Positions 4,438 to 30,213 of a DNA stretch of 64,000 bases are shown in pieces (within the stretch, counting starts at the first letter, position 1; the number at the start of each line of letters is the position of its first letter). Position numbers and translations under genes: made by a program. The notes beneath the pieces are model-generated. The model saw nothing but the letters and a program-made list of their open reading frames with translations. It did no database searches and was not told the DNA's origin. The stretch comes from an uncultured Akkermansia sp. (GTDB lineage Bacteria > Verrucomicrobiota > Verrucomicrobiia > Verrucomicrobiales > Akkermansiaceae). The stretch is taken from contig CANQGG010000005.1 in NCBI GenBank assembly GCA_947601655.1, positions 4,309 through 68,308 on the forward strand. The letters run 5' to 3'.

Positions 4438-4542
4438 ATGTGTTTGATGTTAGCCTTTCATTTCTGAGGCATCAGGTTTCCGAAAATATCTCGTCCCCCG
4501 TTTTAGAGCCTCTTCGTTGACTTTATTTTTGAGAAAATGCGG
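4438..4542 (+). repeat. Dispersed intergenic repeat, copy A (most diverged)
   Basis: catttctgaggcatca...gactttatttttgag aligns with copies at 14948 and 30130; atgtgtttgatgttagcctttc also matches sequence upstream of copy C. Confidence 0.8.
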
Positions 4543-4576
4543 ATGGAAATTTTCAGAGAGATTCGCAAAAAAGGAG

Positions 4577-4604
4577 TTGACATCTGCATGCAGCATGCTA
4601 AACT
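4577..4604 (+). promoter_or_regulatory. Promoter of tRNA-Arg (and possibly tmRNA)
   Basis: TTGACA-16 nt-TAAACT with extended -10 TG. Confidence 0.7.
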
Positions 4605-4647
4605 TTCTCCGCCTTCTACGGAGGATGTGGCTTTTATGCCGCTTCAT

Positions 4648-4721
4648 GCGCCCGTAGCTCAACTGGATAGAGCGTCTGACTACGGATCAGAAGGTTTGGG
4701 GTTCGAATCCCTACGGGCGTG
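4648..4721 (+). tRNA. tRNA-Arg(ACG), CCA not encoded
   Basis: Cloverleaf GCGCCCG/CGGGCGT, anticodon arm TCTGA-CTACGGA-TCAGA, TTCGAAT T-loop. Confidence 0.96.
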
Positions 4722-4772
4722 TTGACCGTCGTCATTGAAGTTTTCCGCTATCATTGCGACGGTCTTTTCATC

Positions 4773-5129
4773 GGGGGCGCCTCGGTTTCGACCGAACATT
4801 CGAGGTGCCGGCTGCATGTGGGGGTTGATCGGCTGGCCCCCTTACCAAGCCGCTCAAACATTAAGTGCCTATTCCAATAACGAATACGCCATGGCTGCGT
4901 AATATACGCGCCGGATCCCGCGCCTGACGCCCGCTAGGGCGCCGGATCTTCAACTCAGCGAGCAGTCTCTTGCGGGGGGTACCGCCGTTTGAGCCTCACC
5001 AACAGGTGCCTCGCCTTTTCGGAAGTCGGCGCAGAACTTCCGCATTGGCTAAAGCAGCTTCTGCGCCTGAACATGGAGATGCTTGCATCAAAAATGTCCG
5101 GGACAGGGGTTCAACTCCCCTCGCCTCCA
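4773..5129 (+). ncRNA. ssrA: tmRNA; tag reading frame 4867-4902 encodes (A)AYSNNEYAMAA*
   Basis: GGGGGCG...CGCCTCCA acceptor stem with G3-U70, GGTTTCGAC 5' motif, GGTTCAACTCCCC T-arm, short Ala-ending tag after TTAAGT. Confidence 0.93.
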
Positions 5130-5133
5130 TTTC

Positions 5134-26812: not shown

Positions 26813-27366
26813 ATTTGCTGCAAAAGTTCATTCACCGTATGAGGCAATGGTCGCAAAACGCTATGGGATTCAAGCACTACCGCAACGGCACTCACGACTT
26901 CCTGCTCCATTTGCTGTTCGTCGCCATACACAAACAGGCAGGGGCCATCGGCACTGCGTAAAGCGGCCTCAAACATCCCCATTCGCAAGGTATCTTCGCC
27001 CGCAGCCAAGGTGGTACTATTATCGCAATTGCCGGTTACCAAACCCAACAACGAAGCCGGGGCATTGTGCACCGACACAGAAAAACCGGCGGGCGACATC
27101 TCCCCGTATTGCTCATATTCAGCAAACAGGTTCAAAGTTCGGGCTATCTCACCATAGCGGCTGGCATACACCACCGGGTACTGCAACACCTCCTCGCCCA
27201 CAACCGCCGCCACACGAGAGACGCAACTAAGCACAGCACGGCTCAGGCGACTCATACGCCGTGGCAAACTCTTAGGCAAAGATGCCATCGGCGGTCGTTC
27301 TGCCGCATCGCCCGGTTGCCAAACCTCGGCATGCCGCACACGGTATGGAAGCATCAGCTCGGCCAT
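26809..27366 (-). CDS. Ketosynthase chain-length factor (ApeC-like)
   Basis: RRMSRLSR, ASRYGE, SPAGFSVSVHNA; no catalytic Cys. Confidence 0.82.
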   Translation of the reverse strand: MAELMLPYRVRHAEVWQPGDAAERPPMASLPKSLPRRMSRLSRAVLSCVSRVAAVVGEEVLQYPVVYASRYGEIARTLNLFAEYEQYGEMSPAGFSVSVHNAPASLLGLVTGNCDNSTTLAAGEDTLRMGMFEAALRSADGPCLFVYGDEQQMEQEVVSAVAVVLESHSVLRPLPHTVNELLQQI

Positions 27367-28583
27367 CTGCGGAATATCAAGCTCGTATTGATGCCACCAA
27401 AAGCGTAGTTATTGTTCATCACATACTCCGCATCCAAACAGCGTCCCGGACCGGTGATATAATCCAGCCCGACACACTCGGGATCCAGCTCGTGTAAATT
27501 GAGGTTCGGATGGTACCACCCCTCGCGCATCATCATGATGCTCACCATAGACTCCAACGCACCGCAGGCGCCCAGCGTGTGCCCGGTGTATCCTTTCACC
27601 CCAGAGGCAGGCACAGCATTCTCAAACACAGATCTTGTGGCTATTGCCTCTGCGCTGTCTCCCGTCCTAGTGCCTGTTCCGTGCAAGTTGATATACCCGA
27701 TGTCCTCAGGGGACAAACCGGCCATTTGCAAAGCCTCCATCATGGCACCCTTCATCGTTTCGGCATTGGGGGACGTGATATGGGTCCCATCGGAGGTATA
27801 GCCAAAGCCCACCACCTCGGCGTAAATACGGGCCCCTCGGGCCTTGGCATGCTCCAGCTCCTCAAGCACCAGGGTGCAGGCTCCCTCGCCCAACACTAAG
27901 CCGTCGCGATCCTTGTCGAAGGGCGCAGGCGTACTCTCAGGACTCTCATTGCGTGTACTGGCGGCAAACAAAGCATCAAATACCGCCAACGCCAGCATAT
28001 TACAACGCTCTGCACCGCCGGCCAACATCACATCTTGACGCCCCATGCCAATAGCCTCGTATGCCGTGCCGATGGCCACACTGCCCGAAGTACAAGCCGT
28101 ACTGCTGTTGATGATGCGCCCTTTTGTCGCAAAGAACAGAGAAATATTTACCGCGGCTGTATGCCCCATCAACTTCACGTAGGTGCTGGAGGTGATCTCG
28201 CGTGCATTCTTCTCTTTCAACAACTTCACACACGGATCAAAGGCCGACATAGAACCAATGCAAGACCCATATGCCACGCCCGTGCGACTACTGCCTATAA
28301 CGCCATCCCCCAATAGCCCGGCGTCCGCCAAGCTACGGCGCGTGCAATCTACCGCCATTACTGAAAGAGAGGACATGGTGCGCAACTGCTTGCGCGTAAA
28401 ATCCGCGGGCGGAGCATAGTTCGACAATGGGGAATATAGGTACGAGCGCAGGCCTTGGTACGCCTCCCAGCCCACCATGCACTGTGTTGCATTTTTACAG
28501 CTCCTCAGCGTTCGCATCATTTTCTCCTGCGTTTCCCCCAATGTAGAAATCGCAGCCATACCAGTCACAACTACCCTTTTCAC
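27354..28583 (-). CDS. Beta-ketoacyl-ACP synthase II (ApeR/FabF-like)
   Basis: STACTSG, NLHGTGT, KGYTGHTLGACG, NNYAFGGIN; GTG start. Confidence 0.9.
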   Translation of the reverse strand: MKRVVVTGMAAISTLGETQEKMMRTLRSCKNATQCMVGWEAYQGLRSYLYSPLSNYAPPADFTRKQLRTMSSLSVMAVDCTRRSLADAGLLGDGVIGSSRTGVAYGSCIGSMSAFDPCVKLLKEKNAREITSSTYVKLMGHTAAVNISLFFATKGRIINSSTACTSGSVAIGTAYEAIGMGRQDVMLAGGAERCNMLALAVFDALFAASTRNESPESTPAPFDKDRDGLVLGEGACTLVLEELEHAKARGARIYAEVVGFGYTSDGTHITSPNAETMKGAMMEALQMAGLSPEDIGYINLHGTGTRTGDSAEAIATRSVFENAVPASGVKGYTGHTLGACGALESMVSIMMMREGWYHPNLNLHELDPECVGLDYITGPGRCLDAEYVMNNNYAFGGINTSLIFRRWPS

Positions 28584-29338
28584 ACCAAACCTCCGTTTAC
28601 ATTGATAACCTGGCGAGTAATATATCCCGCTCCATCCGACATAAGGAAAGATACGGCAGCGGCCACCTCCTCCGGCCGCCCAGCTCGCCGCAGCGGTATC
28701 ATTTTCTGTACATCGTCCATCGACAAATCAGCTGTCATATCCGTCTCGATAACACCGGGAGCCACACAATTCACAGTAATTTTGCGTTTGGCCAACTCCA
28801 GTGCTAGCGCTTTTGTGGCACCGATAATGCCGGCCTTAGCCGCGCTGTAATTTACCTGCCCTCGGTTCCCGATCACCCCGGATACGGAGGATATGGTAAT
28901 GATCCGTCCCCCTTGGCGACTCTGTATCATCGGCATCACACAAGGGTGTATCACGTTGTAAAAAGAATCCAAATCAGTACGCAACACCTTGTCCCACATG
29001 TGAGCCCCCATCGCGGGAAACGGAGCATCAGCCGCCACGCCAGCATTGCTTACCACACCATAATACGCCCCGTGCGCCTCAATGTCAGCTTCCAGTACGG
29101 CGCGAGCTTCCTCCCTCTTTGCCACATCAAACATCAGCACACGGCATGCCGTACCATTTGATCGCAACCGATCCGCCAAATTTTCGCAGGTCTCGCGGCT
29201 CTGCTTCGCGTGCAACACCAACGAGTATCCATCCTTTGCCAGCTTTTCCGCCACTGCCAGCCCAATTCCTCGACTAGCCCCGGTTATCAGACACCATTTT
29301 TCGTCCATCATACGAAATCTTACAGTGTCTGCTGCCAT
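28580..29338 (-). CDS. 3-oxoacyl-ACP reductase (ApeQ/FabG-like)
   Basis: TGASRGIG, SNAGV, NYSAAKAG, VAPGVIETDM; promoter TTGACC-17-TATAAC 6 nt before the ATG. Confidence 0.92.
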   Translation of the reverse strand: MAADTVRFRMMDEKWCLITGASRGIGLAVAEKLAKDGYSLVLHAKQSRETCENLADRLRSNGTACRVLMFDVAKREEARAVLEADIEAHGAYYGVVSNAGVAADAPFPAMGAHMWDKVLRTDLDSFYNVIHPCVMPMIQSRQGGRIITISSVSGVIGNRGQVNYSAAKAGIIGATKALALELAKRKITVNCVAPGVIETDMTADLSMDDVQKMIPLRRAGRPEEVAAAVSFLMSDGAGYITRQVINVNGGLV

Positions 29339-29426
29339 ACGTTCGTTATACCATGCAGTCTGATATTGGTCAATGATTTTCAGATTGAAGGATTAAATGC
29401 TGGCGCTTCTTCTCCAAAGGTCATGA

Positions 29427-29991
29427 TTGAGGCTCGCTATGAAGGAAGGTGCGGTGGGAGTCGTGACGCTGCTCAAGGAAAAGGGAATCGACCCCGGAGA
29501 ACTTCAAGTCGTGAATCCGGAGAAAATCGAGCCGCTGCTGAAACTCGGCGCCCGCATCCCCAAGGACATGACGGATCGGATCACGGAGGATTCCATACCT
29601 CTCGGACATGGTTCACGTCCCGCCAGACTCGACGAGGACTACGTTGACATCATCCAAATCCTCAAACCCACGGTTACAAACCGAATCTGATGGCATGGGC
29701 AAAAGGAAACGGCGGCGGTGGAGGTCTCAACATCAATGCTTTTCTTACGTTTTTCAAAACAGGCGAGAATCTGAATGAGACGGACGAAAACGGCAACTCC
29801 CTCCTCGGCAACTACGTTTCCTCTGCAAAATATGCGTGGAGAATTGCCCAGGTTCTGTCTGCTTTATTAAAGCAGGAGCAAAACTTAACCATAAGAACAA
29901 AGCCGGCAAATCCATCTTGCAGCTCGCGAAAGAGCATGAACTGGAGGGTCGCTTCATCGAACTCCTCAAGGAGCACGGCGCAAAAGAGTGA
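29427..29991 (+). pseudogene. Fragmented ankyrin-repeat gene
   Basis: Three frames: ...LLKEKGID...LLKLGA*, LNETDENGNSLL, then shifted KAGAKLNHKNKAGKSILQLAKEHELEGRFIELLKEHGAKE*. Confidence 0.6.
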
Positions 29992-30044
29992 GGGGGAGGC
30001 AGCCTTTCGTTTCCACGTAGCACCCCAGCGGTTTCATGCTATTT

Positions 30045-30213
30045 AACAGTCGAATGACAATCCGCAGAAAACGGTTCTATTCTCGCTTGATTGCTCATTT
30101 TGGGCGGCATGTATTTGATGTTATCCCTTCATTTTTGAGGCATCAAGCTTTCAGAGAATTCTCTACCCTCCTTTTTAACCTCCCTTCGGTGACTTTGTTT
30201 TTGAGGTATTGCG
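30045..30213 (+). repeat. Dispersed intergenic repeat, copy C (right flank; longest copy)
   Basis: Shares the core with copies A and B, 30045-30070 with B and 30109-30129 with A; followed by GTATTGCGG tandem. Confidence 0.9.

Follow-up and report, generated by a model that had tools for sequence, protein, structure and literature searches.

What is the repeat that occurs three times in a 64,000-nucleotide (nt) stretch of DNA from an uncultured Akkermansia sp., and why does each copy end just short of a likely promoter? The stretch (the window; GenBank assembly GCA_947601655.1, contig CANQGG010000005.1) covers C5:4309–68308 of a 2.46-Mb, 109-contig assembly, and two of the copies lie on either side of a 15-kb aryl-polyene-like gene cluster. 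An earlier reading made from the letters of the window (the sequence-only reading) described an unannotated family and offered several functions for it. Our analysis indicates that the three copies, A, B and C, together with a fourth copy, D, are very probably decayed left-end relics of a 1,403-bp rve/DDE insertion sequence (IS) that inserts upstream of promoters.

A repeat search of the window finds one direct-repeat family at 4455–4541 (A), 14945–15031 (B), and 30127–30213 (C), confirming three copies in the same orientation. B and C agree at 75 of 87 positions (86%), and their longest stretch of exact identity is 26 nt; the identity of A to B is 62%. In the alignment, the shared flanks of A, B, and C are nested. 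The motif TTTTTGAGGCAT is present twice in B and twice in C, and occurs in A in the degenerate forms TTTCTGAGGCAT and TTTTTGAGAAAA; it is the reverse complement of the repeated IS end motif ATGCCTCAAAAA. Searches with a model of the full-length IS (nhmmer) extend the copies beyond their earlier-noted limits and reveal the degenerate copy D on the opposite strand, inside the bracketed cluster. The relics and one associated feature are as follows (window coordinates; IS positions refer to the 1,403-bp element).

4366–4541, minus strand: relic A, IS 1–135 (left inverted repeat, transposase leader, and first codons) and 192–243, terminus at 4541; nhmmer, blastn, and alignment.
14649–15031, minus strand: relic B, IS 1–86 (14946–15031), 243–394 (14786–14933), and 630–780 (14649–14800); nhmmer and tblastn.
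30027–30213, minus strand: relic C, IS 1–150 and a weak match to 244–279; nhmmer and blastn.
22727–22868, plus strand: relic D, a degenerate left end, IS 2–145, in the orientation opposite to A, B, and C; nhmmer, E 1.5e-6.
30205–30231, plus strand: three tandem 9-mers, GGTATTGCG GGTATTGCG GGCATTGCG, in which the terminal nonamer of the IS is locally triplicated.

Read on the strand opposite to the one noted earlier, the relics run from the left terminal inverted repeat (IRL) through a leader of about 100 nt to the first transposase codons (MSKQARIELL...). The 84-nt core described earlier is the reverse complement of the IRL and this leader. The 26 nt common to B and C encode ..KTVIRLLS.., and the stretch common to A and C spans the start codon region. 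Relic B consists of the left end and two transposase pseudogene pieces (..KELQVIKKLWF/LMGQPCGKRME.. and ..LTLTDDYTLRTGNRVVWNRGQYGVCQAF..), which are found at window 14676–14934 by tblastn with the transposase P0002 described below. Relic A is ~78% identical to intact copies of the IS, and relic C is 81–86% identical. The terminal 83 nt of relic B are 94% identical to an active copy, as compared with 79–85% for its coding pieces.

The nested flanks had been taken to mean that the copies are deletion derivatives of one longer mobile element, and both the alignment and the full-length IS model bear this out. Terminal inverted repeats and a transposase were said to be lacking, which is true of the relics as such but not of the parent element, which has both, nor entirely of B with its pseudogene pieces. 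The repeat is no new element devoid of genes, since it maps to an IS end and a transposase pseudogene, an outcome that the sequence-only reading had itself named as refuting its proposal. Nor is it a miniature inverted-repeat transposable element (MITE) or another non-autonomous mobile element: the window relics keep the IRL only, so they are not mobilisable.

Tandem doubling or tripling of the last 9–11 nt of the left IS end (GGCAWTGCG), just outside the terminus, occurs not only at window 30205–30231 but also at C23:~470–480 and in L075 and L077. Such duplications may be a trace of the transposition chemistry or of several insertions into one spot.

BLAST and iterated nhmmer searches find ~16–18 family members in the whole genome. 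Aligned with longer flanks, several of them reach much further 5′ in the earlier-noted orientation. The longest relic, C4:16904–17426, encodes on the opposite strand a 132-residue open reading frame (ORF), MSLEMSKQARIELLSVWRAKY...GQPCGKRMVAQLPEWL. This fragment alone matches nothing in Pfam or NCBIfam; in an exhaustive phmmer search it is 75% identical to residues 1–127 of a 408-residue rve protein, P0002, and it also aligns to the N-terminus of a 421-residue rve transposase from a genome of the same order (E 1e-15). Searches of the contigs with the transposase and the full-length IS model find no intact copy in this genome, where left-end relics far outnumber right-end relics. With one terminal repeat, a leader, truncated transposase codons, nested internal deletions, and no mobility, the relics resemble ordinary solo IS ends and IS-decay relics. 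They are unusual only in that almost solely the promoter-proximal end survives. One further member, C29:4007–4304, is an internally deleted derivative in which IS 1–199 is joined to 1264–1368 of 1403. It retains some of the right end and is found upstream of a tRNA gene; no other MITE-like form was seen in this genome.

P0002-like proteins are encoded at loci from metagenome-assembled genomes of Akkermansia. Pairwise BLAST of these loci gives the intact 1,403-bp element the same boundaries in L032, L033, and L034, with terminal inverted repeats of 30–32 bp at both ends (the left one, of 30 bp, being CGCAWTGCCTCAAAAATAAAGTCACCGAAGG). No intact member was seen with ends that differ from the repeat. 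The element begins with CGCAWTGCC... and ends with ...GGCATTRCG. The left end carries the motif ATGCCTCA(A/G)AAAT at its terminus and a second time ~65 nt further in, and the right end has two tandem copies of it 32 nt apart. A 4-bp target duplication flanks four of the eight complete copies (L033, L034, L129, and L135). The IS family is present in 18 of 81 Akkermansia species genomes, some of which hold dozens of candidate copies (up to 53).

The transposase has 408 residues, and rve is its only Pfam domain (36.4 bits; cut-off 32.6). The predicted catalytic DDE triad is conserved among 39 homologs, with D173 and E272 the same in all and D234 in nearly all. A structure prediction from a 7-sequence alignment was too poor (predicted local distance difference test, pLDDT, 54) and was redone with 39 sequences (pLDDT 82); in the resulting model, helical domains at the N-terminus accompany an RNase H-like core, a small beta domain, and a long helix at the C-terminus. 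Its best fold matches in the PDB are IS21 IstA and retroviral integrases, with TnsB and MuA absent from the top 50, and a PDB sequence search with the transposase returns nothing significant. The nearest annotated relatives, on plasmids of Rhizobium, Sinorhizobium, and Acidithiobacillus, are ~32% identical and carry the NCBI label 'ISNCY family transposase', although they are ~100 residues longer. A large protein collection holds 513 homologs, mostly on IS-sized contigs.

A candidate transposase promoter, TTGATG-17-TAAYAT, is located at IS ~67–106 (L034:154–193; in relic C, window 30108–30147, minus strand). It ends 8–9 nt before the ATG, from which we infer that the transposase mRNA would be leaderless. 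The subterminal putative transposase-binding motif overlaps the candidate −35 hexamer and spacer and may provide autoregulation.

What decides where the element goes? All promoters in this work are −35/−10 consensus predictions. An outward-reading cTTGAC-17-TAnnnT follows almost all relics of this genome at much the same distance, and the same is true of intact copies in relatives. After 40 more junctions had been retrieved, we scored 58 distinct end–flank junctions with a simple −35/−10 matrix. The −35 hexamer of the best outward promoter lies 35–38 nt from the terminus at 31 of the 58 junctions (binomial P 3e-25), 20 of these at exactly 36 nt; at 8 others the distance is 25–28 nt and at 6 it is 45–48 nt. 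The class means, 26.1, 36.2, and 46.8 nt, are about one helical turn apart. An outward promoter scoring at least 10 is present in 42/58 flanks, as compared with an inward one in 1/58, and with 4% of shuffled flanks and 1/10 typical right-end flanks. When the flanks are aligned on the terminus, they share little except the promoter with its upstream WTT..GC context, which is the general promoter context of this genome, and a short A/T-rich stretch ~10–12 nt off.

In this genome, the two flanks of the intact L033 copy directly adjoin each other (C2:62741–62792), with the promoter conserved, providing a view of an unoccupied site. Nine sites in genome G071 whose IS ends are 96–100% identical have offsets of 25, 25, 35, 35, 36, 36, 37, 37, and 38 nt. 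At five sites of members that are 44–49% identical in protein, on unrelated metagenome contigs, the offsets read from the sequences are 46, 37, 37, 37, and 36 nt. The right end of the L040 copy is IRL-like and also faces a promoter at 36 nt, which fits the notion that the end sequence sets the orientation. For the very distant homologs L041, L045, and L023, inverted-repeat searches give no clear ends or promoters. Unoccupied sites show that the predicted promoters were there beforehand, and the rule is obeyed by near-identical, recent copies; the junctions therefore show, as far as genome comparison can, targeted, oriented, and distance-specific insertion upstream of pre-existing sigma-70-type promoters. 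Judged from the same comparison, the distance rule is not the product of long selection.

The relics in the window are accompanied by the following promoters and genes.

4577–4604, plus strand: tRNA-Arg/tmRNA promoter TTGACA-16-TAAACT, the −35 of which starts 35 nt from the terminus of relic A; called by a stricter scan too.
4647–4722: tRNA-Arg gene.
4773–5129: transfer-messenger RNA (tmRNA) gene.
15059–15087, plus strand: promoter-like site of the KS operon, TTGTTT-17-TATACT, the −35 of which starts 27 nt from the terminus of relic B; a weak match.
21575–22648, minus strand: O-methyltransferase gene (Pfam), faced by the terminus of relic D.
22655–22683, minus strand: promoter-like site TTGAGC-17-TACGAT, reading away from relic D and ~41–42 nt off its terminus; identified from the sequence.
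30259–30287, plus strand: ppk1 promoter TTGTAA-17-TAGGAT, 45 nt from the terminus of relic C and 27 nt from the last tandem 9-mer.
30327–32423: ppk1 gene.

The claim that A, B, and C each lie just upstream of a sigma-70-type promoter is upheld by the predicted −35-like hexamers; the stricter consensus scan calls the promoter of A only, and not those of B or C. The tRNA-Arg promoter is conserved in five other species that have no relic there, and G042, the closest species genome, keeps the ppk1 promoter in the form TTGCAA-17-TAGGGT, again with no relic there. Because of this conservation in species without the relic, the predicted promoters beside the relics are regarded as native and pre-existing. 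The proposal that the copies mark cargo insertion points falls for the same reason.

In G042, a gene for a flavin mononucleotide (FMN)-reductase-like protein lies directly upstream of the tRNA-Arg promoter (window counterpart 4566–5220). In this genome, the FMN-reductase-like gene is at 13840–14637 on the minus strand, 9 kb off and inverted, and abuts the inner end of relic B. The shift suggests an IS-associated rearrangement, possibly an inversion of ~4566–13837.

Several points weigh against reading the window copies as relics of a promoter-targeting IS. The promoters are predicted from consensus throughout, with weak matches at B, C, and D. The window relics fit the main peak loosely, with distances of 35, 27, 45, and ~41–42 nt. 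A base-level comparison with empty sites is precluded for A, B, and C, as G042 is only ~78% identical and its upstream synteny differs. About 10% of the junctions have no convincing promoter, and some junctions may be orthologous and not independent (for example, L059/L062, L069/L077, and C1/C12). The 4-bp duplication is absent from four of the eight complete copies (L032, L040, L044, and L130). Finally, the excess of left-end relics is not obviously predicted by pure neutral decay and leaves room for selection; shielding by the neighbouring promoter, or a selected role of some kind, may account for it.

With these reservations, we propose the following course of events. The active element would insert with its left end towards an existing sigma-70-type promoter that reads away from the element. 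Its terminus would land 36 bp upstream of the −35 hexamer, at about −72 from the transcription start, or less often ~26 or 47 bp upstream, and the insertion would yield a 4-bp target duplication. The core promoter and its A/T-rich upstream part would stay intact; because the promoter is spared, the element would be tolerated beside essential genes such as those for tRNAs, fabF, recA, ppk1, and the genes of a ribosomal protein operon, and relics would linger there. These relics would be neutral leftovers, shielded from further deletion by the neighbouring promoter.

The landmark could be promoter-bound RNA polymerase, or a DNA shape imposed by the polymerase. Since the flanks share no sequence motif besides the promoter, it is probably the promoter complex or the DNA geometry that is recognised, and the helical-turn side peaks suggest a landmark that is recognised from one helical face and not as a sequence motif. 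A terminus at ~−72 (or −61, −82) would be positioned just beyond the region occupied by RNA polymerase and its alpha C-terminal domains, on one helical face. Positions ~−61, −72, and −82 are those from which class I activators contact the polymerase. As a tentative extension, one that we hold to be possible and no stronger, the transposition complex might be positioned by the RNA polymerase holoenzyme, for instance through the alpha C-terminal domains or through enzyme-wrapped upstream DNA, leading to integration on a single helical face at ~−61, −72, or −82.

The promoter association could instead arise after insertion: the element would insert nearly at random, and copies in phase with a promoter would survive or be favoured, for example because the A/T-rich left end serves as an upstream activating or insulating sequence. 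A 10.5-bp periodicity is equally expected from phase-dependent activation, this genome has kept far more left-end than right-end relics, and the terminal 83 nt of relic B are better preserved than its coding pieces. However, the nine G071 copies, near-identical and hence recent, all obey the rule. Harmless insertions that are out of phase, or intergenic without a promoter, should persist too, yet they are rare; right-end flanks show no promoter enrichment; and the rule holds down to 44% protein identity. We consider survival after insertion unlikely as the source of the rule, and targeted insertion remains the preferred explanation.

Targeted insertion of the parent does not preclude a later use of its remains, and a cis-regulatory module was one of the functions suggested earlier. 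The relics could have been co-opted, as host-factor sites or divergent promoters, for adjacent housekeeping genes: they are positioned at ~−72 to −220 of the tRNA, ribosomal protein, fabF, recA, and ppk1 promoters, and they keep the candidate divergent promoter TTGATG-17-TAACAT and the repeated ATGCCTCA motifs. Yet the same promoters are present in other species without a relic, and the relics vary widely in extent, with 62–88% mutual identity. We know of no host factor for them. A cis-regulatory role is, in our judgement, improbable.

The third possibility is that B and C serve as substrates for recombination or excision and so move the 15-kb aryl-polyene-like cluster in one piece. The direct repeats do flank the cluster, are alike over 87 nt, and the cluster is patchy in the genus: orthologs of its KS gene (52–66% identity) occur in 7 of the 80 other Akkermansia species genomes. 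Because these orthologs are so few and lie in different genomic contexts, the cluster is accessory in Akkermansia. However, the IS family is absent from all seven other species genomes that carry KS, and in the five carriers examined there is no relic upstream of KS and the neighbourhoods differ. Relic D, upstream of the O-methyltransferase operon, lies inverted within the cluster. Moreover, all four relics are explained by the predicted promoters adjacent to them, that of C being the conserved ppk1 promoter, and with 26 nt as the longest identical run between B and C excision is possible in principle only. The link between the relics and the cluster looks coincidental, the bracketing of the island by two copies finds no support as a meaningful arrangement, and mobilisation of the cluster by B and C is very improbable. 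In three species, KS directly follows the end of the preceding gene (the cluster corresponds to window 15175–29338 here).

That the core is a structured non-coding RNA or a riboswitch-like leader is hardly credible: GAGGC/GCCTC complementary blocks permit alternative hairpins, but an Rfam scan of the window finds no family at the repeats, folding energies of the core on both strands are indistinguishable from those of shuffles (z −0.8 to +1.8), and the sequence is fully explained as an IS end.

Promoter targeting as such is already known. TnGBS elements and ISLre2/ISKra4 ISs, which have Mutator-like DDE transposases, insert in an oriented manner 15–17 bp upstream of sigma-A promoters with the right inverted repeat (IRR) proximal (Brochet 2009, Guerillot 2014; PMC3942029), and the analogy with Ty3 has prompted the proposal that TnGBS/ISLre2 are tethered to the initiation complex of RNA polymerase (PMC3942029). 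The Akkermansia element resembles them in its oriented insertion upstream of a sigma-A/sigma-70 promoter that is left intact. It differs in that its transposase is rve-type and not of the unrelated Mutator-like (p-MULT) superfamily, its distance is 36 bp and not 15–17 bp, helical-turn side peaks are found only here, and the promoter-proximal end is the transposase-proximal IRL and not the IRR. If the holoenzyme does position integration, this would be a bacterial counterpart of Ty3/Ty1-type tethering that evolved independently of the TnGBS/ISLre2 lineage.

In the ISAjo2/ISAba32 subgroup of the IS1202 family, the IRL is found 5 bp from XerC/D dif-like sites (PMC10132070; bioRxiv 10.1101/2022.12.17.520857). 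That family is like ours in its length of ~1.4–1.5 kb, its single rve-type transposase, its short target duplication (here seen in half of the complete copies), its extra putative transposase-binding repeat inside each end (here ATGCCTCA(A/G)AAAT), and its orientation-specific insertion with the IRL beside a protein-bound landmark. The landmark there is a dif-like site and here a promoter; the ends there are 5′-TGT...ACA-3′ and here CGC...GCG; and the transposase there has 441–457 residues and is TnsB-like, whereas here it has 408 residues and a predicted IstA/retroviral integrase-like fold. As ends, transposase size, and fold do not match, we do not assign the element to IS1202. The IS481 family shares a single-ORF rve/DDE transposase with an N-terminal helix-turn-helix region, and its NCBIfam model (NF033577) is the best-scoring IS model, but at 39–43 bits against an equivalog cut-off of 224 bits, so that by this model the element falls outside the family.

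An incomplete search of the literature on Akkermansia IS elements and on fixed −35 distances found TnGBS/ISLre2 and IS1202 as the only precedents, and no rve-type element with a 36-bp, helically phased rule, which is weak evidence of novelty. What appears to be new is thus an rve-type family with the 36-bp rule, a distance unusually long and sharply defined among the few promoter-homing bacterial transposons. With a one-gene, 1.4-kb element, promoter sensing by a bacterial transposase becomes testable. Genetic tools for Akkermansia are few, and the family may supply one for non-disruptive 'safe-harbour' insertion; its relics mark likely promoters where genomes have no start-site data. For annotation, the unannotated repeat family becomes a set of ordinary IS relics, and the idea that it mobilises the cluster can be dropped.

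Other repeats are present in the same genome. A palindromic motif, GGCAAACGCATT ... AATGCGTTTGCC, occurs 211 times genome-wide (~11 expected), 48 of the occurrences being in hairpin-forming pairs. In the window it is located at 22930–22957, 23094–23105, 54206–54217, and 54394–54420, and in relatives it often adjoins IS termini. It looks like a repetitive extragenic palindromic (REP)-like element of Akkermansia. We considered the recurrent AATGCGTTTGCC motif as the true target of the IS and rejected it: its distance to the terminus varies, most sites do not have it, and it belongs to this separate, abundant repeat. A second dispersed repeat family of ~165–240 nt has more than 25 copies in the genome, among them window 23009–23103 and 54208–54302 (inverted, 84%); a copy at L040:3578–3820 sits inside an otherwise intact IS copy of a relative. 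This family, which has the AATGCGTTTGCC motif at its ends, may be a MITE. A second rve-type transposase family (~27% identity) has two copies, C34:26496–26981 and C30:27725–28210, and resembles a 419-residue protein of L026. Lastly, three tandem 105-nt repeats (100%, 87%, and 69%) are found at window 48461–48775, probably within a coding region.

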